Of a stretch of DNA of 64,000 bases, positions 13,163 to 61,030 are shown in pieces. The translations under genes were made by a program, and so were the position numbers. The notes under the pieces were generated by a model, which was given only the letters and a program-made list of their open reading frames with translations, ran no database searches and was not told the DNA's origin. Source of the stretch: Candidatus Bathyarchaeia archaeon (GTDB taxonomy: Archaea > Thermoproteota > CALKCG01 > B24); assembly GCA_038870975.1 (NCBI GenBank), contig JAVZJD010000002.1, positions 5,922-69,921 on the forward strand, written 5' to 3'. Numbering within the stretch: the stretch's first letter is position 1; every line of letters starts with the position of its first letter.

Positions 13163-14389
13163 TTAAATTTCACCGATGGATTCATCTTCATCTAACGTAA
13201 GCCTCATTAAATCCGGCTCTGGCGGCATTAGGTTTAGAAATTGCTCGGCAGCCCGTCTCGGCTCTTCACTTCCGACTATGTACCTTCCAACCACTACTAT
13301 ATCTGCTCCGTTTTTCAAGGCTTCGACGGAGGTTTTGGGGGTTATACCTCCTGCAACTGCTAGGAGGACTTTAAAACGGCTTTTAATCTCAGCTATTTCG
13401 TTCCACTTATATTCGACTGTTTTACCAGACTCTGCTGTCATTCTTTCAACGTCAGCGCTAACGTGTAGAAGCACTACGTCAGGCTTATACTCTAGCGTTT
13501 CAATTTTAGCTATCGGGTCTGAAACTTCCATAGTATCTAGAATCGAGTAGACTCCCTGTTTTCGTGCTTCAAGTATGGCTTTATCTATCGTAGTCTTCGA
13601 TGCGGCGGCGAGTATGCAAACAGCGTCTGCAGTAGCGTCGGCGGCTTCTTTAACCTCAACTCTCCCAACATCCATTGTTTTCAAGTCTGCAACTATGAAT
13701 GCGTCCCTCCAGACTTCTCTAATCTTCTCAATGGCTTTAACACCGTAGGCCTTTATGAGCGGTGTGCCAGCTTCAAGGATTACTCTTTCACTCCTAGGTA
13801 GTTGTTTAACTATTTCCAGGGCTTTCTCGAGACTACTCAAATCCAATGCTACTTGCAGGTACGGTGGACTCCAAAGCTTTTTAACTCTAAACCCCATAAT
13901 CGGGTGGACTGCTCTATCCTTCTCCTTGAGAACCTTTTCAACAGTTGGATATTCTTTTAGCGCTCTTCTCACGGCAAGCTTCGTAGCGGCGTAATTGAAC
14001 TGGTAGATTCTCCTGAAGTCTCTAGCCTTAGGATGCACGAAGACAGAGACTATTACAACCCAGTTTTCACACTTATCCCTTGGAATAACCCCCTCTTCAA
14101 CTGCATCAGCTATGGCTTTAGCAACAGCCGCTTGAGCTGGGCCGAAGACCTTCTCAGAGTCTTCCATACTTCTAACGGTGACTTTAGGCACTATGAGAGT
14201 GCTAGGCTTCACCGGTAGATTTGGCCTTAGTACGGCTAGCATAGCTGTATGTCCAGCGGATGGATTGGATAAAGCGTTTACAAAAGCTAAGCCAGCCGCC
14301 CCGCTCTTCTCTCCAAGCACTACATCGACGTGGGCAACTTCATAGCCTGAACCTATTAGAGCTTCCCCTACGTAGAAGCCTCTTTCCAA
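13163..14389 (-). CDS. fae-hps: bifunctional formaldehyde-activating enzyme / 3-hexulose-6-phosphate synthase (Fae-Hps)
   Basis: The N-terminal half ([23 protein letters not shown]...) is Fae-like. The C-terminal half (PYLQVALDL..., [23 protein letters not shown]) is an OMP-decarboxylase-fold HPS. Confidence 0.85.
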
Positions 14390-25057: not shown

Positions 25058-25567
25058 TTGTATTTGGGAGAGTATATTTTGGCTGCTCTCGTTGAGCATA
25101 AGCCTGGCGTTTTACATAAGGTTTCAAACATGTTTAGGAAGAGGAATTTCAACATAGAGAGTATAACGGTTGGTGCATGTGAGGATGGAGATGTTGCTAG
25201 GATGACTATAACTGTTCAAGGTGATGAAGCTGTCGTTGAGCAGGTTGTGAAGCAGCTTCAAAAGCTTGTAGATGTTATAAAGGTTAGTAGGCTTGAGCCT
25301 AGTAAGAGCGTTGTTAGAGAGCTGGCTCTAGTTAAGGTTTACACGGCTGATTCTAAGGCTAAAAGCGACGTTGTAAACTACGCCACCATATTCAGAGGTA
25401 GGATTGTCGACGTTTCTAAAGACTCTATGATAATCGAGGTTACAGGTTCGCCTAGTAAAATCGATGCCTTCGTTGAACTCGTGAAACCCTACGGTATTAA
25501 AGAGTTCGCTAGGACTGGCGTTGTAGCTATGTCGAGAGGACTTAAATCTTTGAAAGTAGAAGAATAG
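25058..25567 (+). CDS. ilvN: acetolactate synthase small (regulatory) subunit
   Basis: ACT domain LVEHKPGVLHKVSNMFRKRNFNIESITVG followed by the ALS small-subunit C-terminal domain. Confidence 0.85.
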   Translation: MYLGEYILAALVEHKPGVLHKVSNMFRKRNFNIESITVGACEDGDVARMTITVQGDEAVVEQVVKQLQKLVDVIKVSRLEPSKSVVRELALVKVYTADSKAKSDVVNYATIFRGRIVDVSKDSMIIEVTGSPSKIDAFVELVKPYGIKEFARTGVVAMSRGLKSLKVEE

Positions 25568-26572
25568 GTGGAGGTGTTTACCACGGTTAAGGTCTTCCAT
25601 GATGAGGATGCTTCTCTAGAGCCTCTTAAAGGTAGGACTATTGCGGTGATAGGCTATGGAAGCCAGGGTAGGAATCAGGCTTTAAACTTTAGAGACTCGG
25701 GTTTAAATGTGATCGTAGGCGTTAGACGTGATGGTAGGTCTTGGAGGCTTGCATCTGAAGACGGTTTTAAAGTCTATGAGATACCTGAAGCCTCAAGGCT
25801 CGGCGATATTGTCCATATACTGATTCCGGATACTGCTCAGCCTGAGGTTTACGCTGAACAGATCGCTCCGTATATTTCAGAGGGTAAGGCTTTAGGCTTC
25901 AGCCACGGGTTCAACATACACTTTAAACGCATCGTTCCCCCTTCAAACGTAGACGTTATAATGGTTGCTCCGAAGAGTCCGGGGCATCTTTTGAGGCGTA
26001 TGTATTTGGAGGGTTTCGGAGTTCCTGCGCTTGTAGCGGTTCATCAAGACTACAGTGGGAAGGCTAGAGAAACTGTTCTAGCTATGGCTAAGGCTTTAGG
26101 CTGTACTAGGGCTGGGGTTATAGAGACTACTTTTAAGGATGAAACTGAGAGCGATTTGATAGGTGAACAGTGTGTACTAGTTGGTGGTTTAATCGAGCTT
26201 ATTATGAAGGGTTTTGAAGTACTGGTGGAGCTTGGGTATCCGCCTGAGCTTGCCTACTTTGAGGCGTGTAATGAGGCTAAGCTCATAATGGACCTTATAT
26301 ACGAGCGGGGTATAACTGGTATGCTTCAGGCGGTTTCAGACACGGCTAAGCATGGAGGTTTAACTAGAGGACCGAGGGTTTTAGACGAGAGGGTTAAAGA
26401 GAATATGCGTAGAGTGGCTGAAGAAGTTATAAGCGGTAAGTATGCTGAAGAGTGGGTTAAAGAGGATGCTGCTGGTAGGCCGAATCTTAAGCGTCTCCTC
26501 ATGGAGATTGAGCGGCATCCTCTTGAAGTCGTCGGTAGGAGTATACGTAGGATGGCTGGTATAGAAAAGTAG
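25568..26572 (+). CDS. ilvC: ketol-acid reductoisomerase
   Basis: [22 protein letters not shown] motif and [11 protein letters not shown]. Confidence 0.9.
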
Positions 26573-26583
26573 AAATCGTCCGG

Positions 26584-26600
26584 TTTTATTTTTCATTTTT
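26584..26600 (+). terminator. oligo-T tract (ttttatttttcattttt) between ilvC and the next gene
   Basis: A T-rich run lies 12 nt after the ilvC stop, and archaeal RNAP terminates at oligo-T. It could equally be read-through spacer. Confidence 0.3.
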
Positions 26601-26602
26601 AA

Positions 26603-27658
26603 ATGTCTGAGAGGCTTGCTTTAAAGGTTGATAAGCGTAGATCCAACGATTTGATTAAGCTTCTCAAGGTTATGGGGCTTTTAAATGGAGATTTTAAGGT
26701 AAAACGTGTAGAAGACTATGTACTGGTTCCGATTTTGAGGAAGCCTACTGTTGAAGAATTGGAGGTGCTCAGCCGTTTTGAGCCTGTTTTACAGGTGGGT
26801 GTTTTCGAGCCTAGGTTTAAAACGTCTAGTGTTAGAGAGGCTTTAAAGGGTTTAATCCCAGATGGTTTACTCGACTCGGTTCCATCTTCAATGGATTTGA
26901 TAGGTGAGGTTGCTATTGTGCAGGTTCAAGATGAGTTGAAGCCTTTCTTAAAGGCTATTGGAGAGGCTATTCTCAAAGTCTATCCACGTATTAAAACGGT
27001 TCTAGTGAAGAGTAGCCCTATATCTGGGGTTTTCAGAGTTGGAGGCTATGAGGTTGTTGTAGGCTCTGGTGTGACTGAGACTTTCTACAGGGAGCATGGG
27101 TGTGTATACCTTGTAGACCCTGTTAAAGTGTACGTAAGTCCAAGGTTGAGCTTTGAGCGTTTAAGGGTTGCTTCGATGGTTAAGCCCGGTGAGAACGTGT
27201 TAGACATGTTTACAGGTGTTGGATGTTATGCTATTTTAATCGCTAAGAGGGTTTTAAACTGTAAAGTCTACGCTGTTGATTTAAACCCTTACGCTATTAA
27301 ATACCTTAAGTATAATATTGAGAGGAATAGGGTTCAGGGTAGAGTTGTACCGATTGAAGGAGATGCATCTAAAGTCGTGGAGTCTGGTTTAAACGGGATG
27401 TTTGATAGGGTTATAATAGATAACCCTTCGAACGCTAGGGAGTTTCTAAGAGCTGCTTGCGATGCGCTTAAACAGACTGGTGGAGTTGTACACTACTACG
27501 AGTTCCGCCCAGAGGGTGATTTAATGGATAGGGTTTTAGAGGACTTCTACGAGAACGTTGAGAGGTTTGGAAGGTCTGTAAAGTCCTCTAACGTTAGAGT
27601 AGTTCGGGAGGTTGCTCCTAGAATATACCATGTGGTTGTAGACGCCTCTATCCAGTAG
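26603..27658 (+). CDS. Trm5/Taw22-type (Met-10+ like) tRNA methyltransferase
   Basis: SAM-binding VLDMFTGVGCYAI, DLNP and a catalytic-loop IIDNPSNA pattern, with an N-terminal D1/D2-like region. Confidence 0.7.
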   Translation: MSERLALKVDKRRSNDLIKLLKVMGLLNGDFKVKRVEDYVLVPILRKPTVEELEVLSRFEPVLQVGVFEPRFKTSSVREALKGLIPDGLLDSVPSSMDLIGEVAIVQVQDELKPFLKAIGEAILKVYPRIKTVLVKSSPISGVFRVGGYEVVVGSGVTETFYREHGCVYLVDPVKVYVSPRLSFERLRVASMVKPGENVLDMFTGVGCYAILIAKRVLNCKVYAVDLNPYAIKYLKYNIERNRVQGRVVPIEGDASKVVESGLNGMFDRVIIDNPSNAREFLRAACDALKQTGGVVHYYEFRPEGDLMDRVLEDFYENVERFGRSVKSSNVRVVREVAPRIYHVVVDASIQ

Positions 27659-27679
27659 ACCATCCAAGGCTTGGTTATT

Positions 27680-28087
27680 CTACTCTTTAAACGCTTCCAG
27701 TGTGATGTGTACAACGGTGTCTGGGCTTTTTAAAAGCCGTAGGATTTCCCTAGGTAGGTCTGAGGCTGATGAATCGGCTTTAACCATGACGGTTCTTGGG
27801 CATACGTACTGGCTCTTCCTGAAGACCATAGATTTTACGTCTGTTAGAGTCATTTCTCTAGAGCCGTATCCTCTAACAGTCCACGTGAACGGTCCAGCTT
27901 CGAGCTTTAAGGTTACGACTGTACTTCCGCTTTTTAGAAGCTGTTTGAATTCTGGGCTTAAATCGTAGGCTGCTTTCGAAGCTGAAACGGCGATTATACA
28001 GTCTCCTCTCGGCGTTACATAGGGGTCTCTGGTGATTTCAAAAGTAGTCTTATGTTTAGCTGTTATGTTTGGGTGTCCCCTAGCCAC
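27680..28087 (-). CDS. DUF371-family protein
   Basis: The motifs ARGHPNITAKHKTTFEIT and PRGDCIIAV recall DUF371. This is a call from memory. Confidence 0.5.
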   Translation of the reverse strand: MARGHPNITAKHKTTFEITRDPYVTPRGDCIIAVSASKAAYDLSPEFKQLLKSGSTVVTLKLEAGPFTWTVRGYGSREMTLTDVKSMVFRKSQYVCPRTVMVKADSSASDLPREILRLLKSPDTVVHITLEAFKE

Positions 28088-28112
28088 TACGTACTCCCTA
28101 GCGTTGGAGATT

Positions 28113-28607
28113 CTACCACCATCCCCTCCATCCCTTCTTACCCCTTAAAGGTACGAATGCTACACCACCCAAGTGTACTGTTTCAACAGTTTCATCGCTA
28201 CGCTTGTACGCTTTAACCAATTCTTGGAATCCACCTGGCGGTCCAATGGGTGCGACTATGAGACCGCCTACTTTAACCTGTTCGATTAGAGTGTCTGGGA
28301 TCTCTGGGGCTGCGGCTGTAACGAGGATGCGGTCGTATGGTGCTTTTTCAGGATAGCCTAGAGAGCCGTCTCCATGTATGACTGTGACTCTATCTGAGTA
28401 TCCGCTTTTACGTACGTTTTCCTCAGCCATTCTGTAAAGCTCGAAGATTATTTCAACCGTCCAGACGTGTCCCCACTTCTCCCTAGGTTCATCAGACGGT
28501 GCGACTACTTCAGCTATTGTACAAGCGTGGTATCCTGAGCCGGCTCCAACCTCTAGAACTTTTAAACCCACTTCGAGTTCAAGCGCTTCATTCATTATAC
28601 AGACCAT
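28113..28607 (-). CDS. pcm: protein-L-isoaspartate O-methyltransferase, C-terminal 164 aa (second coding segment)
   Basis: MVCIMNEALELEVGLKVLEVGAGSGYH is the SAM motif I of PIMT. The segment ends ...GGVAFVPLRG. Confidence 0.85.
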   Translation of the reverse strand: MVCIMNEALELEVGLKVLEVGAGSGYHACTIAEVVAPSDEPREKWGHVWTVEIIFELYRMAEENVRKSGYSDRVTVIHGDGSLGYPEKAPYDRILVTAAAPEIPDTLIEQVKVGGLIVAPIGPPGGFQELVKAYKRSDETVETVHLGGVAFVPLRGKKGWRGWW

Positions 28608-28645
28608 GTTTCACCCCTCTAGCCTTCTGGCTAGAAGTGTGGTGC
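28608..28645 (-). other. bulge-helix-bulge (BHB) RNA motif enclosing a 29-nt insertion in pcm (candidate intron)
   Basis: mRNA sense reads G-CACC-ACA-CUUCUAGCC-AGAA-GGCUAGAGG-GGUG-AAA-C. That gives a 4-bp helix (28644-41 with 28615-12), two 3-nt bulges (28640-38 and 28611-09) and an inner 9-bp hairpin. Symmetric excision removes 29 nt and restores the frame. Confidence 0.6.
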
Positions 28646-28837
28646 GGATATGGTTTGACCGTAGCCTATCGGTAGTGGTGTGTCGACGTAGGCGTATGGC
28701 TTTAAATATTCCGGTAGAAAGTTCTCCCTTGGGACTCTTCTAAACGCCTCTATGACTTTCTCCGTCTTGAGGATGCCTTCTCTAACGTAGATGTCTATCA
28801 ACTTCTCCTTCTCTCTTTTAAAATCCTCAGAGGACAT
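28631..28837 (-). CDS. pcm: protein-L-isoaspartate O-methyltransferase, N-terminal 67 aa (first coding segment)
   Basis: ...[33 protein letters not shown] matches the PIMT N-terminus. The frame then runs into TAG inside the 29-nt insertion. Confidence 0.85.
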
Positions 28838-28869
28838 GTTTCCACTATTTAAATGGTTTACGTTTACTG

Positions 28870-30234
28870 TTAAACGTTTCCCATGCCTAACATCTTGTAC
28901 TCTTGCACCAGCTTCCTAGCCTTCTCCAGCCACGTTGGGAATTCCTCCGGGTTCTCTGGGAAATTCTGGTAGTGTGTTTTAACTGTTTTCATGAGTTCAG
29001 ATGTTTTTCTAAGCCTTATGACGAAGTTGAGCTTTCCTACTGAGCGTAGAAACCTAAGGGCTTTATCTGTGATTGTGAGTTTAACTTCACCGTATAGGCT
29101 GGCTTTTAAAACGTCTTCTTCAGCTATCAGCCTCCGGCTCATACCGTAGTTCAACTCTTCATCCGAAGCATTCTGGAGGAATACTCTGAAGACGTCTAGA
29201 GATGCCTGTTTAGAGCCGTATCCCCTCATGTATGCTACGTTGTAGCTCCAAAGACCCCTGTAGCTTACATCTCCCTTCTCTAAAGCCTTCGCGGCGGTTT
29301 CACCTGCGAGTTTTCCAGCTGTCATAGATGGTCCTATTCCACCTCCGTGGATCGGGTTTACTTGGCAGGCTGCATCACCTACCACTATTAAGCCGTTTGA
29401 AACCATGTTGTCTAGAGGTCTTCTCGTTGGGACGAAGGCTCCTCTTCCGTCTAAAACCTCAGCCTTTTTAAGCCATGGAAGCTTATCCTCTATGAACCTT
29501 GTGAAGTAGCTTTTAATCTCCATTTTGGCTTTTGAAGCTTGAACACCCAGCCCTATGTTGACCTTGTTTAAACCCTTCGGGAATAGCCAGAAGTATCCCC
29601 CTGGAGCGTACTCTTGGCTTAGGTATATGTAGCCGAACGTTCTATCTTCAATTTCGCCTTCTAAGGTTCTAACCTCTCTGTAGGCTATTTCAAGCTCTTC
29701 TCTTTCCACTGTTTTTTCAAAGCCAGGCGTATCTGGGGCTTTACTCCTGAGGACTGCGGATACACCTGAGGCGTCTATGAAAACCCTCCCCCTTAAAACT
29801 CCGCTTGAATTACGGCCTCTGACTTTAACGGCGACTATGTAGTTGTTTTCAACTACAGGTTCTAAAACGGTGGTTCTATCCATAAGCTCTACGCCTGCGT
29901 TTAAAGCCTCTTTGAGAAGCCTCCCTCCGAATTCGCGTCTATCGACCATGAAGGCTTTAGCCCCTAGACCGTATATTCGGAATGAGGTTTCAAAGTCTGG
30001 TGAAACTACTTTAACGCCTTCAAGCTCCCAGCAGAGTTCGGAGCCTGTGGGGTATTTTAAGCCTATGTTGTCGAAGTGGTGTTTACCGACTGCGTCTCCA
30101 CAGGCTTTAAGTCCTACGTTTTCAGATGGCTTAGACTCTAAGAGGCATACTCTTAAGCCTTTCTCAGCGGCTGTCTTTGCGGCTAGACATCCTCCTGTTC
30201 CAGCACCTACGACTACAACATCGTAGAGCTCCAT
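28870..30234 (-). CDS. geranylgeranyl reductase family flavoprotein (archaeal lipid saturase type)
   Basis: FAD motif [14 protein letters not shown] and a later VGDAA motif, in a 454-aa archaeal GGR-like layout. Confidence 0.75.
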
Positions 30235-30250
30235 GTCTCTATATTATGCC

Positions 30251-30739
30251 TCATCTGGGAGATTTATGTTTTCTCAGTAGTCTACCGTCTTCGTCTATTT
30301 CACCTAGTTTCACTCTTGTGGAGGATATGGGTTTTCCATCTTCGGCTAAAACCATTGGAATCTTCACTATTTCAATGGTTTTCAAGCCCCGTGCTTCTCT
30401 AAGCCTGTTTATTTCCAAGGCTCTACTGTAGGTTTCATCGCTGACTACTATGGCTTCTACAGCCGGGTTGTATGCTGCTGGACCGTAGGGGTCTTCTATG
30501 GCTGTTATAATAGCTCTATCTTCCACTCGCATGTCTTCCAACAGCTTCTTAAGGCTTTCCAGTCTTTCAACGTAGGGTTTGACTTCATGGGCTTTCCCCA
30601 TGCTTCTGGCAAATTTGTCTGTCGTAAGCCCTATGAGGACGTTATCTCCGAGGTTGAAAGCCGTAATTAGAAGCTCTCTATGCCCCTTATGGATGGTGTC
30701 GAATGTACCTCCTAATGCGACGAGTCTGAATCTGCGCAT
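30251..30739 (-). CDS. coaD: archaeal phosphopantetheine adenylyltransferase (cytidylyltransferase fold)
   Basis: GGTFDTIHKGH nucleotidyltransferase motif in a ~160-aa archaeal PPAT-like (COG1019) protein. Confidence 0.65.
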   Translation of the reverse strand: MRRFRLVALGGTFDTIHKGHRELLITAFNLGDNVLIGLTTDKFARSMGKAHEVKPYVERLESLKKLLEDMRVEDRAIITAIEDPYGPAAYNPAVEAIVVSDETYSRALEINRLREARGLKTIEIVKIPMVLAEDGKPISSTRVKLGEIDEDGRLLRKHKSPR

Positions 30740-30772
30740 AGCTTCATGTAGTGTTTAAGAGAGTTTAAATAG

Positions 30773-32023
30773 TTAAGTAGTACTATTCGATGTAGTGGAT
30801 TTTTCCAACCCTCTATGAGCCTGCATCAGTATTGCTAGTGCTACTGCTTGAGTTGAAACGGCGAATATCAGCGTTAAGACTGGTTGTACGTTGAAGTCTA
30901 TCATTAAGCCGTAGATGGCTCCGCTTGCTAGGAAGCCTACGCCGTAGGCTGCGTTGAAGATTCCATATGCCAATCCTCTTGAAGAGGTTTCTGTAAACGC
31001 TGAGACTGCTGCTCTGTATGTGGATTCTTGTACGCCTAAGACTACTCCGAAGAATATCGATGCGATTATTAGGGTTGTTAAGCCTGAGTTTAGCATCGTG
31101 AATACTGGTGGGAGTATTGAGAGTATGAAGGGTAGGGCTAGGATTTTAATGCCCAGTCTATCGTATAGGTATCCTGAGGTTAGGGCTGCTGGAGCGTCAA
31201 TCCCCTGGATTAGAAGGTATATTAGTGGAACTATCCACTGCTGTTGCTCCGGCTGTAGTATGGCTGAGGCTTTGTACAGTATTAGCGATGCGGGGATTAA
31301 ACCTACGGTGTTTAAAGTAACTGCTAGTGTGTAAACGTAGAATGGTTTTCTAAGGGCTTTATCGGCTTTTTTAACGTCTACTGTAGGCTCCAGTACTGTT
31401 TTAGAGCCTATTCTCAAGTATGTGTATGTTAATGCTGCTATGAGTATTGTGAACGGTATTGTCAGTATGCTGAAGCTCAACCTGTAGTTGTTTCCACTGT
31501 AGAGCATTAGCGTTGCCACTAGTAGTGGTCCTGCAACTGCTCCTACTTGGTCTAGGAATTCATGTATTCCGAATGCTTTACCTGCCCCCATTCCTCTACT
31601 CACTATGGATATGATCGTGTCTCTAGAGGGTGATCTACAGGCTTTCCCAAGTCTTTCAAGCAGTACTAGGATTGCCGCTATTTCCCATCCGTTTGCGAGG
31701 CCTAGAAGCGGTATGGAGGCTATAAGCCCATAGCCTATGAACATGAAGACCCAGTATGCTCTAGTGGTGTCCGCTAGGAAGCCGCTGATGAGTCTTGTAG
31801 CGTATCCTAGGAATTCTCCGAGTCCGCTGACGAGTCCTACGACGAATGCTGTAGCGCCTAGAAACTTCAGGAAGTCGGGTATTAGTCCTCTTGAGCCTTC
31901 GTATACTATGTCGCCCATTAGGCTTACTACTCCAAGGAGTAGGATGCTTACGTAGACGCTTCTCAATTCTATGGTGTGTTTCACGTTAGACCGCCAGTTT
32001 AAGCTAAGTATCGCATACTCCAA
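30773..32023 (-). CDS. MFS transporter
   Basis: About 12 predicted TM segments with a hydrophobic MFS-like layout. Confidence 0.65.
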   Translation of the reverse strand: MEYAILSLNWRSNVKHTIELRSVYVSILLLGVVSLMGDIVYEGSRGLIPDFLKFLGATAFVVGLVSGLGEFLGYATRLISGFLADTTRAYWVFMFIGYGLIASIPLLGLANGWEIAAILVLLERLGKACRSPSRDTIISIVSRGMGAGKAFGIHEFLDQVGAVAGPLLVATLMLYSGNNYRLSFSILTIPFTILIAALTYTYLRIGSKTVLEPTVDVKKADKALRKPFYVYTLAVTLNTVGLIPASLILYKASAILQPEQQQWIVPLIYLLIQGIDAPAALTSGYLYDRLGIKILALPFILSILPPVFTMLNSGLTTLIIASIFFGVVLGVQESTYRAAVSAFTETSSRGLAYGIFNAAYGVGFLASGAIYGLMIDFNVQPVLTLIFAVSTQAVALAILMQAHRGLEKSTTSNSTT

Positions 32024-38353: not shown

Positions 38354-39289
38354 GTGGATGCTTTCAAGCTGAATAAGAGGTTAGGAAGAGGGGTTAACAT
38401 ACTCGGCTACGACCCGGTATGGAGGTCTAAGGATAGGGCACGTATGAAGGATGAGCATTTCAAACTCATAAGCGGTGCTGGCTTTAACAGTGTACGTATC
38501 GCACTCCACCCCCTCCGGGATGAAGCTATGAGTGAAGAATTTAAGCTTTCGAATAAGTGGTTGGAAGTTTTAGACTGGGCTATTGAACAATCCCTCAATA
38601 ATGGTCTTGCGGCTATACTCGACTTTCACGAGTTTATAGCTATGGGTAAAGCTCCGCTAGAGAATAAGGATAAGTTCCTCTCCTTCTGGAAGCAGGTCGG
38701 TGAACGATACCGCGATTATCCAGATGAGGTTCTCTTTGAACTACTCAATGAACCGAACAGCAAATTGACACCAGAATTGTGGAATACCTTCCTTAAAGAA
38801 GCCCTCCAGCTGATCCGAGAGAGAAACCCCGAGAGAACCGTTATCATAGGACCCGCATACTGGAACAACATCAACCTTCTAGATAAGCTGACCCTTCCAG
38901 AAGACGATAGAAACATCATAGTAACCGTCCACTACTACGAGCCGATGGACTTTACACATCAAGGCGCTAAATGGGCTGGACGGGAAAACAAAATCGGCGT
39001 AGAGTGGAGGGGAACGGATGAAGAGAAGAAAGCAATTATAAACTCTTTCAATAGAGCTCAGTCATGGGCGAAGGAACATAATAGGCCGATATTCCTCGGA
39101 GAATTCGGAGTCTACGATAAAGCTCCAATGGAATCTAGAGTCCGATACTTAAGCTTCATCGCTAGACTTGCGGAAAGCATGGGCTGGAGCTGGGCCTACT
39201 GGCAGTTCGACAGCGACTTCATATTGTACGATATACCGAACAATAGGTGGATAGAACCAGTATTAAACGCTCTAATTCCAAGAGGATAG
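38354..39289 (+). CDS. GH5 endoglucanase/cellulase-like glycoside hydrolase without a signal peptide
   Basis: GRGVNILG, acid/base LLNEPN and nucleophile context IFLGEFGV. An in-frame TAG directly precedes the GTG start, so no leader is encoded. Confidence 0.75.
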   Translation: MDAFKLNKRLGRGVNILGYDPVWRSKDRARMKDEHFKLISGAGFNSVRIALHPLRDEAMSEEFKLSNKWLEVLDWAIEQSLNNGLAAILDFHEFIAMGKAPLENKDKFLSFWKQVGERYRDYPDEVLFELLNEPNSKLTPELWNTFLKEALQLIRERNPERTVIIGPAYWNNINLLDKLTLPEDDRNIIVTVHYYEPMDFTHQGAKWAGRENKIGVEWRGTDEEKKAIINSFNRAQSWAKEHNRPIFLGEFGVYDKAPMESRVRYLSFIARLAESMGWSWAYWQFDSDFILYDIPNNRWIEPVLNALIPRG

Positions 39290-49857: not shown

Positions 49858-50379
49858 TTAAACGGTAGACCTTTTAATCTTAGGAAGAGTTTCAATAGTA
49901 AACTTGGCGATTTGTTCTTTTGTAAGTCCGTACTCCCCATTCAACTTACTTATTTTACCCTGTTTAAACATAGATGCAAGAGTATTATAGACTGTTTTCA
50001 AGGCTTTATTCGTTGTTTTAGCGAGCTCAGACGGTGTCAAAGACTCTTTACTCAGTTTTCCAAGTCTAAAACCTAAGTAGGCTCCTACTAAGCTCAGCAT
50101 TATAGCGTCTTCAGCGGATAAATCCGTTCTCTTAAGAACTACTCCATTATCTGTTACTTGGAGAAATTCAGAACATTCTCTGATAAGCGTGTCAAAGTTG
50201 GGCTCGAAGACTATTTTCGAAATCGCCTCATAAGACGGGTATACTTTAGAAAGCCATTCAAAGAAAGCCCTTAAAACAACGTCAGACTCGCCTTTGAAAG
50301 TTGCTTCTAAAGAGCCTATTTTAACATTCAACTCTATACTACTCAACAAGTTCACCTTTAAGCCTAGGTGCAACTTCAC
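49858..50379 (-). CDS. two-domain wHTH protein, paralogue 1 of a four-member local family
   Basis: The N-domain IELNVKIGSLEATFKGESDVVLRAFFEWLSKVYP aligns with the other three. The C-terminus is helix-turn-helix-like (LTPSELAKTTNKALKTVYNTLASMFKQGKISK). The likely start is the TTG at 50346, overlapping the upstream stop. Confidence 0.6.
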   Translation of the reverse strand: MKLHLGLKVNLLSSIELNVKIGSLEATFKGESDVVLRAFFEWLSKVYPSYEAISKIVFEPNFDTLIRECSEFLQVTDNGVVLKRTDLSAEDAIMLSLVGAYLGFRLGKLSKESLTPSELAKTTNKALKTVYNTLASMFKQGKISKLNGEYGLTKEQIAKFTIETLPKIKRSTV

Positions 50380-50836
50380 TTATGAAGTACTTCAACCCCT
50401 TCGAAGTAATCCTATATTCGCCTCTTTCCACCTTCTCGACAAGATAACCATTCTGAAGCTCACTAAGTCTAGCGCTGATAGAACTTTTAGATTTACCCAA
50501 TCTTCCAGAGATCTCTTCAAGTGAAAGTGAAGCCTTATCGGATTTGCCGAATAGGTAGGCGAGATATTTAACGATCAAAACTAGTAGACAGCCTTCGAAA
50601 ATAGTCAACTTCTTCATATCGGCTAAAACAGTGGGTTCAGGATGTACTGTAACTAAATCCTTTAAACCCTTGGAGACCTCCTCTAAATCCAAGCTTAGAG
50701 TCAAATTTTTCACAAGGCTGAAAGTCGGATAGACGTCTGATATGAATTTGATAAGACTTCTCAAAACCTGCTCGGCATCCCCTGAAAACTCCAACTCTCC
50801 ACCCTGGAATGAGACTTTAACTTTAACCTCGCTCAT
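50339..50836 (-). CDS. two-domain wHTH protein, paralogue 2
   Basis: N-domain VKVKVSFQGGELEFSGDAEQVLRSLIKFISDVYP and C-terminal winged helix LSLEEISGRLGKSKSSISARLSELQNGYLVEKVERGEYRITSKG. It overlaps the upstream gene by 4 nt. Confidence 0.65.
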   Translation of the reverse strand: MSEVKVKVSFQGGELEFSGDAEQVLRSLIKFISDVYPTFSLVKNLTLSLDLEEVSKGLKDLVTVHPEPTVLADMKKLTIFEGCLLVLIVKYLAYLFGKSDKASLSLEEISGRLGKSKSSISARLSELQNGYLVEKVERGEYRITSKGLKYFISEVAPRLKGELVE

Positions 50837-51381
50837 AACATTCCTCCCCTAATCTTTGGGATAATCATCTTCTCAACCCACATTTGACCTTGAGCTGAAA
50901 GCTTCCACACGACATCCTTCGGGTCAGGCTTGAAAACTCTACCCGATTCAGCCATCTCCTTAAGTCTAGCTGACACGTTTGAAACCTTAAAGCCCGAATT
51001 CTGCAAAAGTAGAGCTATAGTTTTAGGGTCAGACTTCTGCTCTTTAAATGCATAAAGTAGCAAACCTATAGCTTCATACTGGCTTAACTTAGCCTTCTCC
51101 GAAGCCACTATCAAAGGACCGTCAACGCTCCACTCAATCAAACCCTCTAATAGGTTAGATGTCTGTGGAGCCTTTTCAGCAGCCTCGAAATGCTTGAACG
51201 TAGAAGGCTGAAAATCCTCTACAGTCAAACTACTTTTAAGTAACTCCTTAAAACCCATTGAAGAAGCTTCTTCTAAAGCCGTTTTAACAAGGCTGAGCTT
51301 TTCACGGAGTTCTTCAACCGTTGAAAACTCAAACTCTAGAGAGCCAAACCAAGACCGGAAGATCGCTTTTACTCCGCTCAT
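50833..51381 (-). CDS. two-domain wHTH protein, paralogue 3 (first gene of the trio)
   Basis: N-domain FRSWFGSLEFEFSTVEELREKL and C-terminal IALLLQNSGFKVSNVSARLKEMAESGRVFKPDPKDVVWKLSAQG. An AT-rich 224-nt upstream region precedes it. Confidence 0.6.
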   Translation of the reverse strand: MSGVKAIFRSWFGSLEFEFSTVEELREKLSLVKTALEEASSMGFKELLKSSLTVEDFQPSTFKHFEAAEKAPQTSNLLEGLIEWSVDGPLIVASEKAKLSQYEAIGLLLYAFKEQKSDPKTIALLLQNSGFKVSNVSARLKEMAESGRVFKPDPKDVVWKLSAQGQMWVEKMIIPKIRGGML

Positions 51382-51605
51382 ATCTGTAGAAAAGATTAGA
51401 TAAACCAGTATATAAATCTATTCAAAAAATCCTTTAAAATTCCCATATTTAAAAACACTTACATAACCTTTTTACCATAATTTTCACGGATAAAAAAGGC
51501 GTGGTAAAATATTTAGGAATAAACTAGGAAAATTTTATTTAAATTCTACATGGTTTTATCCATAAAACAGTTAATATTTCCTCCATTGAATACTTAAGTG
51601 AAAAC

Positions 51606-52010
51606 TCACAAACTTGGAGGCTTCTTCTGAATATACACGTATTTACCCTTTCTACCGCCTCTATACAGTATATCGCTTCTAACTAAATCAGCTAAAGTAT
51701 GCGCAACAGCAGTCCTATCGTAGTGGAAGCCACGTTTACTGAGCTCTTCATGAACATCGCTGAGCGTCCTCCCAGTACTAAACCATCCGGTCCTCCAAAG
51801 ATTGAGTAGAACACCCCTGCAAGTTGATGGAGTGGGCTCTTTAACAATTTCAAACTCAGGCTTACTAAGCTCTCTATCCAGTAGAGAGACGTTTTGAAAT
51901 GCACTTAGAAATTCTTCAACAGTCTTCTTAAGCTGGTCTTCTCTACACTCAATCTCTGCTTCGACTCCTTGATACTTTAACTTTATCCTGACTTTTCTAT
52001 CGGATTCCAT
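51606..52010 (-). CDS. two-domain wHTH protein, paralogue 4, divergent from nurA
   Basis: N-domain RKVRIKLKYQGVEAEIECREDQLKKTVEEFLSAF and C-terminal RTLSDVHEELSKRGFHYDRTAVAHTLADLVRSDILYRGGRKGKYVY. I prefer the ATG at 52010 over the ORF-track start at 52049, which would cover the TATA element. Confidence 0.6.
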   Translation of the reverse strand: MESDRKVRIKLKYQGVEAEIECREDQLKKTVEEFLSAFQNVSLLDRELSKPEFEIVKEPTPSTCRGVLLNLWRTGWFSTGRTLSDVHEELSKRGFHYDRTAVAHTLADLVRSDILYRGGRKGKYVYIQKKPPSL

Positions 52011-52021
52011 ATTCAACCACT

Positions 52022-52043
52022 TTGTTGATTGAACAATCAACAA
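52022..52043. promoter_or_regulatory. 10+2+10 inverted repeat ttgttgattg-aa-caatcaacaa (operator candidate)
   Basis: Perfect 10-nt arms lie in the 77-bp divergent region, between the TATA-like box and the paralogue-4 start. Confidence 0.5.
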
Positions 52044-52048
52044 CAACA

Positions 52049-52056
52049 CTTATAAG
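52049..52056. promoter_or_regulatory. palindromic TATA-like box cttataag shared by the divergent promoters
   Basis: It lies 32-39 nt upstream of the nurA ATG (52088) and 39-46 nt upstream of the paralogue-4 ATG (52010). That spacing fits archaeal TATA-to-TSS distances with very short leaders. Confidence 0.4.
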
Positions 52057-54777: not shown

Positions 54778-55026
54778 TATTTACCTAGAACTACTTTTGT
54801 TGCAGTACCATTAAGAGAGCTAAACTAAGCTTCATCATAATACAGAGAAAGTAAATTAGAATTCCACAGTTTGACGTAAGATTCTTAGAGTTCTACAAGT
54901 AAAGTCTTTATATTTTCCATTCAAAAGAAAATTCACCTGAGGAAGCTTGAAGAGGCCCGAAAAGAGATGGTGGAAGATTCAGGCATAAGCCTCGAAGACC
55001 TCATTGAAGAGATAGGCTGACAATAA

Positions 55027-55277
55027 ATGTTTCAAGTAATCGTATCTCAAAGAGCCAGAAACTCCCTGAGCACTACAAAAGAAGGATTATTGAGCTACTC
55101 TTAATTTTTCGTGAAAATCCGGTTCCAGCCGAATATTATGACGTAAAAAAGCTTAAAGGATGCGCAGATATTTATAGAGTTAGAATCGGCGATATTCGAG
55201 TGATCTACGAAATATTATGGGACCTTAATATGGTTCATGTATTACTAGTTGAATGGAGAGAAAGAGCCTACCCTTAA
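55027..55277 (+). pseudogene. frameshifted RelE/ParE-type toxin gene, with a truncated antitoxin remnant upstream (~54889-55020)
   Basis: ATG 55027 gives MFQVIVSQRAR... and then stops. The other frame continues LPEHYKRRIIELLLIFRENPVPAEYYDVKKLKGCADIYRVRIGDIRVIYEI...LLVEWRERAYP*, a classic RelE/ParE pattern. The upstream ORF (...RKLEEARKEMVEDSGISLEDLIEEIG*) lacks a start codon. Confidence 0.55.
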
Positions 55278-55874
55278 ACAAAAAGGAGGGGTTTGCGGGA
55301 GATATCACCAAGTAGTCGTTGGTTCAAATGCATCTGAAAATCGCTTCTATGCTATTAGATTTTGGTATTCCAGTTACAAACATTAATAACCAGACGCTTG
55401 ACGTATCTGGTAGAATCATGGTTTACGATAACAAGATAAAGGGTAATGGACTTAGGGTTTATGAGTTTATGCGGATACTATTCTCTAACGAATCATGGAT
55501 ATAGATAGGAGTCCGTAGATGGCGCTAAAACAACTATGAATGATGGCAGAGGCAGGTTCACGGAGCTGAAATACTACTACGGCGGATCATGGTCGAGTTG
55601 GAACGCTATAAAGTTTACAAATGGAAGTGGAAAAGCAGGTATGGAGTATCCACCGGACCCACCATACCGTGCTAAAGCCTTAGATACTAATGGGCTTATA
55701 ACGTGGGGAGGCTACGATGCAGACCCCTGAGAAAGCTGGCTACTAGCTACGGATAAGTAGCGCTTATGGTCTAGATGCTCAACACTTGCAAATAGCATTT
55801 TTCTCTGTTAGTATGGTAGAAAGGAATTTAAAAAAGTTAATAGGCACTCTACAAGCAGTGCCTACTCCAATAAA

Positions 55875-59659: not shown

Positions 59660-61030
59660 TCACCTTTTGAGGAGAAGTACAATAATGCCAATCGTAATAA
59701 CTACCCCTACTAACAATAGGATGAGTTGAGAGTAATCTCTCCTCCAAACAGCATGTATCTCTCTATGCTCATCAACGTATACTTCAATAGTCCTCTCATC
59801 AACTATTCTATCTTCGGGTTTAAGTCCTTCGAAGTGGTCGAATACGTTTAAAACTAGAAAGCCAGTTCTCAACTTGCTTAATTTCACGGTAGCGTATGTA
59901 CCCTTATGGTACCATCCAGATCCTAAGGCATCACCATAATCGGTGATTACAGAGACGTAATACATATCCTCTTTCGGAATCAATGCGTTTAAGAGTTCTT
60001 CTCTCCACCTCCCTCTTACAGGATCGTAAACTCCGAAACCAGCGCAGAATTCCCAGTAGCACCAGGCAATATTCCTCTTTTCAGCTTCTCTAGCTACGAA
60101 ATAAGTCCATCTAATCCTAGAATTAATATCCGCTTTACTATACGCTCCGAATTCTCCGAGGAGGAGTGTGATATTACCATGCTTTATAGACCATTGAACC
60201 GCTATATCTAATTCATCTCTAATCTGTTTCTTTTCAGCCTCAGTTCCAAGCCACCTCCTTCCAACAGGTGGAGAAGGATTAACCCACTCAGCACCCTGAT
60301 GTGTAAATTCAAAGGGTGTGTAGAAGTGGAATGTAACTATTATATTCTCATCGCCTTCAGGTATCTTCAGATCTCTAAGCCTATAAACGCTATTCCAATC
60401 CACCGGGCCTACTACGATCTTCCTCGTAGGGTTTGTCTCCCTTATGATTTTAATTGTATCCGTAAGGAGTTCATTCCATATTTCGCTAGTTAAAGCTCCA
60501 CTGGGCTCATTGAGCAATTCAAAATACAGGTTTTCAGGATAATCCTCGTAGTGTTCAGCTATCTGCCTCCATAGGGCTATGAAACGCTCTCTATGTTTTA
60601 CAGGATCCTGCATAATCTCCTCATAGTGATGGATGTTTATTATAACTATTAGGCTCTGCTCTAAAGCCTTATTCACAACGTGATCAACTCTTGCGAAGAA
60701 GCTTTCATCAATCTTATAGGGTGGATTTTGATCCGCGTGAGCTGACCATCTTATCGGAATTCTAACTGTGTCAAACCCCGCCTCTCTTATTATACTGAGG
60801 TACTCATCTCTTATGTAGACACCCCACTCTCCTTCTCTAGGGGCTTCCAATGCATTCCCGATGTTTATCCCCCTACGCATATAAACTCCAGTCTGCTCTC
60901 CACTTTCAGCAAATGAATAGGTGCAACGATTAAATTCCAAAGATACAACATAAGAGACCAGTAGAATAAAAATTGCTAGGTGAATTCTACAATACTTCAA
61001 AATACCACCTCTACAGTCTCTATTTTCCAA
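59660..61030 (-). CDS. secreted or membrane-anchored GH5 endoglucanase/cellulase
   Basis: N-terminal hydrophobic leader, GINIGN, LLNEPS acid/base, LLGEFGA nucleophile, an extra beta-rich domain and a C-terminal TM anchor (LILLLVGVVITIGIIVLLLKR). Confidence 0.75.
   Translation of the reverse strand: MENRDCRGGILKYCRIHLAIFILLVSYVVSLEFNRCTYSFAESGEQTGVYMRRGINIGNALEAPREGEWGVYIRDEYLSIIREAGFDTVRIPIRWSAHADQNPPYKIDESFFARVDHVVNKALEQSLIVIINIHHYEEIMQDPVKHRERFIALWRQIAEHYEDYPENLYFELLNEPSGALTSEIWNELLTDTIKIIRETNPTRKIVVGPVDWNSVYRLRDLKIPEGDENIIVTFHFYTPFEFTHQGAEWVNPSPPVGRRWLGTEAEKKQIRDELDIAVQWSIKHGNITLLLGEFGAYSKADINSRIRWTYFVAREAEKRNIAWCYWEFCAGFGVYDPVRGRWREELLNALIPKEDMYYVSVITDYGDALGSGWYHKGTYATVKLSKLRTGFLVLNVFDHFEGLKPEDRIVDERTIEVYVDEHREIHAVWRRDYSQLILLLVGVVITIGIIVLLLKR

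Follow-up and report, generated by a model that had tools for sequence, protein, structure and literature searches.

A compact bulge–helix–bulge insert in the pcm gene of Bathyarchaeia as a probable mRNA intron of the tRNA-splicing machinery

Since 2002, splicing of a coding region by the tRNA-splicing machinery has been known in archaea from essentially one gene, cbf5, on whose intron Watanabe (2002) and Yoshinari (2006) are also said to have worked. The cbf5 pre-mRNA, encoding dyskerin (a pseudouridine synthase), carries a bulge–helix–bulge (BHB) intron in Desulfurococcales and Sulfolobales (Yokobori 2009, PMC2738675), and the rule stated for it is that the tRNA-splicing endonuclease EndA cleaves between the second and third residues of a bulge (PMC2738675). 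A further BHB intron lies in the 5′ untranslated region (5′ UTR) of the Haloferax volcanii HVO_1309 mRNA (PMC7714728). Here we analyse a 64,000-nt stretch of DNA from a Candidatus Bathyarchaeia archaeon (GCA_038870975.1, contig JAVZJD010000002.1, positions 5,922–69,921 of the forward strand; hereafter the window), in which pcm, the gene for protein-L-isoaspartate O-methyltransferase (PCMT), is broken on the minus strand by an insert of 29 nt. We put at about 0.85 the probability that these nucleotides, at 28638–28610, are an mRNA intron excised by EndA, with the exons sealed by RtcB. Very likely, pcm then joins cbf5 as the second family of archaeal protein-coding genes whose transcripts need splicing. 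Full-text literature searches returned only cbf5 (coding, Crenarchaeota) and the HVO_1309 5′ UTR as archaeal mRNA BHB introns, and none of the texts found connected BHB with pcm or with isoaspartate methyltransferase. The first-pass annotation of this DNA had anticipated that a pcm intron would be new, and these searches uncovered no prior report. Its view that protein-gene BHB introns are documented essentially only for cbf5 holds for coding regions, where cbf5 is the sole case in the literature searched, and has to be widened for mRNAs by the HVO_1309 leader intron (PMC7714728).

The pcm intron, which is strongly supported computationally, would work like that of cbf5 and would belong to a known kind of element with very few members. 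The two have in common a short insert in a coding region, a (mostly) relaxed BHB motif predicted to be cut between bulge nucleotides 2 and 3, and a variable interior alongside conserved pairing to the exon; both have a patchy presence implying precise loss, and both are routinely misannotated as two open reading frames (ORFs) or a frameshift. Unlike cbf5, pcm functions in protein repair, unrelated to RNA metabolism, and its intron is found in Bathyarchaeia and is compact and uniform at 29–33 nt. Moreover, cbf5 splicing is backed by cDNA and in vitro EndA evidence, whereas the pcm intron is known from sequence. We rejected membership in the cbf5 intron family, because the host gene encodes a PCMT (PF01135); the mechanism would be analogous without making the pcm intron a member. 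The HVO_1309 intron resembles that of pcm in placing an EndA substrate in an mRNA, but it sits in an untranslated leader with no frame to restore, in a euryarchaeon with a homodimeric EndA.

The two halves of pcm are minus-strand ORFs in different frames, 29 nt apart: 28631–28837 (68 amino acids (aa), ending GQTISAPHF at a stop) and 28113–28607 (164 aa, starting MVCIMNEAL). Two in-frame TAGs meet the upstream ORF in the insert; in frame 0 a TAG lies one codon past the His codon, and in the exon-2 frame a TGA lies two codons ahead of the AUG. When joined as SAPH/MV, the halves yield a 231-aa protein that Pfam matches to PCMT (PF01135) over residues 9–225 (E = 1.7e-65), covering profile positions 2–209/210, and that aligns colinearly, and gap-free at the junction, with two PCMTs of solved structure, 2yxe (E = 1.3e-61) and 1jg1 (E = 2e-51). 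In this alignment the gene has no damage apart from the insert, and the break falls within the most conserved motif of the PCMT family. The spliced gene, exon 1 (28837–28639) plus exon 2 (28609–28113), would count 696 nt, or 231 codons and a stop. Comparing the window with relatives at a synonymous divergence (dS) of about 1 gave ratios of nonsynonymous to synonymous divergence (dN/dS) of 0.05–0.10 for exon 1 and about 0.05–0.07 for exon 2, values indicating that both exons are under strong purifying selection. The first-pass annotation had read the two ORFs as one split PCMT, as the Pfam match and the colinear alignment bear out, and it had located a 29-nt break with two upstream-frame TAGs between PH and MV, exactly as the sequence and the ORF list have it.

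Written as mRNA, the sequence around the insert is G(28645) CACC(28644–28641) ACA(28640–28638) CUUCUAGCC(28637–28629) AGAA(28628–28625) GGCUAGAGG(28624–28616) GGUG(28615–28612) AAA(28611–28609) C(28608) AUG(28607–28605). The minimum free energy (MFE) structure computed with RNAfold is the proposed arrangement of CACC/GGUG helix, ACA bulge and 9-bp hairpin (−18.9 kcal/mol, z = −4.8, with 0 of 200 shuffles as stable). The motif has two of the features of a BHB, namely two opposite-strand 3-nt bulges around a 4-bp helix and an intronic helix h′ of at least two Watson–Crick pairs. The 9-bp hairpin closes the 5′ bulge towards the intron, and a single G–C closes the 3′ bulge towards the exon. Because this G–C pair is all there is of the exonic helix h, the motif is a relaxed, HBh′-like BHB; the next position of helix h is pairable in only 12 of the 33 sequences described below. 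The helix, bulges and 9-bp stem had been placed at these coordinates, and the motif called relaxed for its single outer G–C, in the first-pass annotation, and the fold and the helix-h counts agree with both descriptions. An extended exonic helix, ACCAU/AUGGU, appears in the window MFE fold and was rejected; relatives give it no support, and the Thr wobble base that would need to pair is unconstrained.

In canonical BHB motifs each bulge stands 3′ of its central-helix strand, as follows from the 37/38 intron in the 7-nt anticodon loop, and the pcm motif has the same orientation. With canonical pre-tRNA (37/38) introns and pre-rRNA BHB sites it shares the 4-bp central helix, the 3-nt bulges 3′ of the strands and an intronic h′. 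As for canonical introns of the hBHBh′ form, EndA and RtcB would be expected to act, and a circular intron product would be expected. Unlike the tRNA and rRNA motifs, however, that of pcm resides in an mRNA and is built from codons, with synonymous sites constrained. It also differs in helix h, which has 1 bp in pcm as against at least 2 bp in the canonical form; the strict definition (footnote in PMC7714728) calls for at least two Watson–Crick pairs in each of h and h′.

Relatives were collected by scanning one genome per species, which gave 80 loci, and inserts were called by tblastn and direct inspection. An insert at the same site was present in 33 distinct pcm sequences, all from Bathyarchaeia and spread over several clades, with lengths of 29 nt (9 sequences), 30 nt (8), 31 nt (6), 32 nt (5) and 33 nt (5); their sources include hot springs, Guaymas Basin, Juan de Fuca fluids, peat and the coal-bed metagenome-assembled genome (MAG) BA2. 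The same scan revealed 0 nt at the site in 27 other Bathyarchaeia loci and in all Desulfurococcales/Pyrodictiaceae, Asgard, Methanobacterium and Thermoplasmata loci found. The insert recurs in independent assemblies (NCBI, JGI, ENA and Logan), and both half-proteins are in public collections under the label 'Candidatus Bathyarchaeia archaeon'; at 90% the 164-aa half falls into a cluster of 20 distinct sequences, with lengths of 164 or 160 aa among the 15 listed. In about half of the scanned Bathyarchaeia species representatives, pcm is currently annotated as two ORFs or as a truncated protein. One relative (loci L001–L004), whose PCMT is 87% identical in amino acids to that of the window, has the same 29-nt insert with the loop changed from AGAA to UGGC, the stem G–U replaced by A–U, and AUA as 3′ bulge. 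Among relatives separated by a dS of about 1, the intron stem has hardly changed, and the 4-nt loop is different in each.

A rough neighbour-joining tree of exon-2 proteins has lineages with and without the intron interleaved within Bathyarchaeia, and for one intron-bearing gene (L070) the nearest full-length relatives found are 82–84% identical. Given this patchy presence, the pattern appears to fit an old Bathyarchaeia intron with many precise losses, as has been argued for cbf5. The surroundings of pcm yielded some observations of their own. Gene order is kept between window positions 25058–32023 and L001–L003, and runs ACT, KARI, Trm5-TYW2, DUF371, split pcm, geranylgeranyl-reductase-like (GGR), CTP_transf_like and MFS. 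In two related MAGs, an intron-free tRNA-Gly(CCC) gene (L027:37–113 and L038:1017–1094) precedes the intron-bearing pcm by a few hundred bases. In a further MAG (MFD00709.bin.2.105, L059:3428–3522), the pcm match shifts frame once near residue 154–180, with a net change of +1 nt; this switch has the appearance of an indel of one base, perhaps an error of long-read assembly, and not of a second intron site.

All 33 inserts can be parsed as G-[C(A/G)CC]-[3-nt bulge]-[hairpin]-[GG(U/C)G]-[A(A/G/U)A]-C-AUG. The hairpin arms are unrelated between clades yet always paired (CUUCUAGCC/GGCUAGAGG, CAACACAGC/GCUGUGUUG, UAACUGAUC/GAUCAGUUA and GGGUUAACC/GGUUAACCC). A covariance model was built from eight sequences, to which all 33 were then aligned. 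In this alignment, 98.6% of cells were paired over the motif and 97.8% in the 9-bp helix h′, whereas sliding the 3′ partners by 1–3 columns left 20–46% paired. Double-sided changes occupied 96 cells, compared with 27.5 ± 4 in column shuffles (0 of 500 reached 96), and compensatory changes were seen at eight of the nine inner pairs and at one central-helix pair. That central-helix pair, the second, is GC in 24 sequences, AU in 8 and GU in 1; its variants, CACC/GGUG and CGCC/GGCG, tie a synonymous exonic Ala codon (GCA or GCG) to the opposing intron base. Unconstrained folds of the individual sequences agree with the motif, and the core was retained in 28 of 36 with 27-nt flanks. A comparison with pcm orthologues, which the first-pass annotation had proposed as a check, has thus returned same-site inserts in 33 genes together with compensatory changes in the helices.

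The codons that flank the insert carry a similar imprint. The 5′ bulge is ACA in 31 of the 33 sequences, with UCU in L022 and ACU in L042, and its first nucleotide, which is the wobble base of the Pro codon, is A in 32 of 33 intron-bearing genes. That codon is CCA in 32 of 33 intron-bearing genes versus 7 of 27 intron-less Bathyarchaeia genes (Fisher P = 4e-9, on counts that are phylogenetically non-independent). The spliced His codon is CAC in 33 of 33, as against 16 CAC, 10 CAU and 1 CAA among 27 intron-less genes (P = 4e-5, with the same non-independence); it appears to be fixed as CAC because its last C pairs with the invariant outer G. These codon counts indicate that the helix and the bulge limit the choice of synonymous codons in exon 1. 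In the 3′ bulge, AAA, AGA and AUA occur in 24, 5 and 4 sequences, with nucleotides 1 and 3 an invariant A. Insert length has no frame constraint: 13 of 33 lengths are multiples of 3, all 13 with stops, and with the other inserts the exon-1 frame terminates inside the insert or 10–13 nt into exon 2. The unspliced mRNA encodes full-length PCMT in none of the 33.

Two of these genes would pin the cuts to the canonical EndA position between bulge nucleotides 2 and 3. In the window the product is identical whether the cut follows the second or the third bulge nucleotide or falls at the codon boundary; that cuts after nucleotide 2 or 3 regenerate ISAPH-MVCIM had already been recognized in the first-pass annotation. 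L022 (from BA2) reads GCG CC-UCU-CGG...CUG-GGCG-AAA-C-AUG and L042 reads GCG CC-ACU-UGG..., and in both, Ala-Pro-His-Met results only if both sides are cut after nucleotide 2; cutting after nucleotide 3 would give Leu, and after nucleotide 1 Asn. His occupies the junction in 26 of 27 intron-less Bathyarchaeia genes, and cutting between bulge nucleotides 2 and 3 restores SAPH-MV in 33 of 33. As to the extent of the intron, the spliced product of the earlier annotation is unchanged, but the BHB rule places the intron at 28638–28610, two bases upstream of its codon-boundary reading.

The proposed reaction would run as follows. In the pre-mRNA, CACC at the end of exon 1 would base-pair with the GGUG close to the 3′ terminus of the insert, forming a 4-bp central helix between two 3-nt bulges. 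EndA would cut each bulge between nucleotides 2 and 3, RtcB would ligate ...GCA CCA C to AC AUG GUC..., giving SAPH-MVCIM and the 231-aa enzyme, and the 29-nt intron would be released, probably as a circle. The predicted spliced junction is ...AUAUCCGCACCAC/ACAUGGUCUGUAUAAUG... and the predicted junction of the circular intron ...GGGGUGAA/ACUUCUAGCC.... We infer that EndA and RtcB carry out the reaction in vivo. Removal by the tRNA-splicing endonuclease, the central suggestion of the first-pass annotation, is supported by the 33 same-site inserts, the covariation, the cut sites of L022 and L042, and the codon constraint.

Several observations weigh against an intron or limit the evidence for it. 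No spliced transcript or spliced-protein sequence turned up in our searches: the joined window protein had no full-length match above 66% identity among 5.8 billion proteins, a result of little weight; a scan of JGI metagenomes for exon ends separated by 0–30 nt returned four contigs, all insert-bearing, and no spliced copy; the spliced L070 protein had no match above 84%, with no spliced or intron-less copy of its clade; and none of 188 fetched proteins was a spliced product. These negatives are weak, because the collections may or may not hold transcriptome data for these lineages. The geometry alone is at chance level, given that the combination of 4-bp helix, 3-nt bulges and compact hairpin (at least 9 bp, G–U allowed) was found 6 times in the window versus a mean of 5.8 in dinucleotide shuffles; the significance of the motif therefore rests on its position at the gene break and its conservation in relatives. 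The alignment used for covariation was fitted to the model, and its sequences are phylogenetically related. Helix h has one invariant G–C (28645/28608), short of the at least two Watson–Crick pairs of the strict hBHBh′ definition, and with this single pair cleavage at the 3′ site needs a broad-specificity EndA. Among the roughly 50 window ORFs surveyed with Pfam there was no EndA or RtcB gene, no cbf5 and no second obviously split family. Finally, in the window clade a Shine–Dalgarno (SD)-like GAGGGGUGA lies 5 nt ahead of the exon-2 AUG, so the C-terminal fragment could be translated by itself.

With regard to the enzyme, relaxed motifs are reportedly cut only by (alpha-beta)2 and epsilon2 EndA (PMC5829648), and a broad-specificity (alpha-beta)2 EndA with an L1 loop has been reported as characteristic of TACK (Thaumarchaeota, Aigarchaeota, Crenarchaeota and Korarchaeota) archaea (PMC5829648). 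Every near-complete Bathyarchaeia genome examined in PMC12918454 is reported to have EndA and RtcB, and BHB-dependent rRNA circularisation has been described in metatranscriptomes (PMC12918454). The first-pass annotation had appealed to crenarchaeal heteromeric enzymes; its host context has to be corrected, as this is a Bathyarchaeia (TACK) archaeon and not a classical crenarchaeote. A tRNA search for native Bathyarchaeia introns as a comparison found no intron-containing tRNA in the window or in 60 loci, and no Rfam family was found in the window, the insert region or the 60 loci.

The only serious rival is a split gene, in which the insert provides a stop and a ribosome-binding site, and 68-aa N-terminal and 164-aa C-terminal fragments are translated separately and then assemble, with the hairpin either incidental or regulating translational coupling. 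We consider this quite unlikely, although exon 2 does begin with an ATG, GAGGGGTGA (28616–28607, minus strand) stands at the proper distance, SD-like motifs (GGAGG/GGTG) precede 25 of 60 window ORFs, and the 164-aa ORF is called as a protein by gene callers and in GenBank. The ATG is the natural Met of the PCMT family, and the SD-like GGUGA is GGCGA in 25 of 33 sequences, co-varying with the exon (CACC to CGCC), which argues that the element is kept for intramolecular and not for 16S pairing. Separate translation does not require two conserved 3-nt bulges or a co-varying hairpin, and the break would have to be tolerated inside the most conserved PCMT motif. L022 and L042 encode the near-invariant His only once spliced by the BHB rule, their unspliced N-terminal fragments ending in SAPLG and a stop, and in 7 of 33 genes the first ORF runs past the exon-2 ATG out of frame.

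A conserved BHB structure could also be explained if EndA cut the mRNA without ligation of the exons, so that the message is destroyed or separated in a regulated decay that leaves no full-length PCMT; RNAs other than tRNAs are known EndA substrates (PMC7714728). This reading is highly improbable in view of the strong purifying selection on both exons as one colinear enzyme, and of cut positions constrained to restore the frame and the His codon, which would be pointless without ligation. Hardly credible is translational recoding, either a frameshift or a ribosomal bypass of the 29–33 nt in the style of T4 gene 60. A stop soon past the putative take-off site and a hairpin directly downstream give pcm a superficial likeness to gene 60, with its short non-coding gap in an ORF, early stop and hairpin, but gene 60 needs matched take-off and landing codons, and in pcm the take-off codon CAC/CAU (CUC in L022) faces AAC/UAC/GAC before the AUG. 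Bypass moreover could not restore His in L022 or L042 and does not require covariation in a helix between exon and insert. Frameshifting was rejected, as neither frame is passable across the insert (TAG in frame 0, TGA in the exon-2 frame). A decaying pseudogene or an assembly artefact, suggested by a frame-breaking, stop-bearing insert in MAG-derived sequence, is effectively refuted by the independent NCBI, JGI, ENA and Logan assemblies, the 20 distinct cluster members, the 33 distinct insert sequences, and a dN/dS of 0.05–0.10 at dS of about 1 in an otherwise undamaged gene; the first-pass annotation had named these two outcomes as fatal to its proposal, and neither was found.

The features of pcm and its predicted intron are listed in Table 1. 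A Pfam survey covered about 50 further window ORFs, and the neighbours of pcm were annotated by synteny with L001. Elsewhere in the window are two GH5 cellulase-family genes (38354–39289, plus strand, and 59660–61030, minus strand; Pfam E = 3e-46 and 4e-54) and a 408-aa fusion of Fae (formaldehyde-activating enzyme) with an OMPdecase/HPS-like part (13163–14389, minus strand). Four consecutive same-strand ORFs of 173, 165, 182 and 147 aa at 49858–52049 (minus strand) have no Pfam match, with an overlap of 41 nt between the first and the second. A stretch of about 1.1 kb (54778–55874), flanked by a NurA-HerA pair and an oxidoreductase gene, holds no ORF above 64 aa, no tRNA and no Rfam match, and one weak 18-nt direct repeat only. 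Applied to the window, a heuristic that excises a BHB and fuses two ORFs gave 95 candidates, nearly all joining neighbouring genes, and was rejected as too permissive.

Table 1. Coordinates of pcm and of its predicted BHB intron in the window.
Feature	Position	Strand	Remarks
pcm exon 1	28639..28837	−	ATG 28837–28835 to C28639, first base of the His codon; 66 codons + 1 nt
pcm exon 1 3′ end (nucleotide 2 of the 5′ bulge)	C28639	−	cut position predicted from L022/L042
pcm exon 2	28113..28609	−	AC completes His CAC, then ATG GTC...; stop TAG 28115–28113
Predicted BHB intron, 29 nt: A CUUCUAGCC AGAA GGCUAGAGG GGUG AA	28610..28638	−	predicted cuts between bulge nucleotides 2 and 3; homologous inserts, covariation
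Central helix H, 5′ strand CACC	28641..28644	−	exonic, codons Ala GCA + Pro CCA; pairs with 28612–28615
Central helix H, 3′ strand GGUG	28612..28615	−	intronic; fold and covariation
5′ bulge ACA	28638..28640	−	predicted cleavage C28639/A28638
3′ bulge AAA	28609..28611	−	predicted cleavage A28610/A28609
Intronic helix h′, 9 bp, one G–U: 28637–28629 with 28624–28616; AGAA loop 28628–28625	28616..28637	−	
Exonic closing pair, 5′ partner: G of the Ala codon	28645	−	G–C in 33/33
Exonic closing pair, 3′ partner: C28608, pairs with G28645	28608	−	sole conserved helix h pair

We also considered that the pcm intron acts as a switch, with PCMT made only when EndA/RtcB splicing, or a temperature-dependent folding of the relaxed BHB, permits; this is unlikely, and could possibly include a function for the excised 29–33-nt circular RNA. 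The persistence of the intron across deep Bathyarchaeia clades and the stops in 13 of 13 in-frame introns are compatible with a selected, tight off-state without demonstrating it. In eukaryotes, HAC1/XBP1 mRNAs are spliced in the cytoplasm by IRE1 and a tRNA ligase, under stress regulation and at twin 7-nt loops. Like the one predicted for pcm, these introns are tiny, spliceosome-independent and frame-changing, lie in the mRNA of a proteostasis factor and depend on an endonuclease, which cuts in stem-loops, and a tRNA ligase; in metazoans the sealing is by RtcB (literature cited in PMC6379350). Unlike pcm, they use a different endonuclease and twin 7-nt loops in place of a BHB, and nothing seen for pcm shows a regulation like theirs. 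If the switch were real, pcm would be an archaeal counterpart of this unconventional splicing.

The pcm set would have further uses. Its 33 natural variants of 29–33 nt would make up a minimal substrate set for EndA recognition of relaxed motifs and also record what would be repeated, precise intron loss, and annotation pipelines that are blind to BHB introns mis-score such genes as pseudogenes. If the splicing proposed here is true, a second, unrelated gene in an uncultured and globally abundant lineage would mean that coding-region splicing by the tRNA-splicing machinery is not peculiar to one RNA-modification gene.

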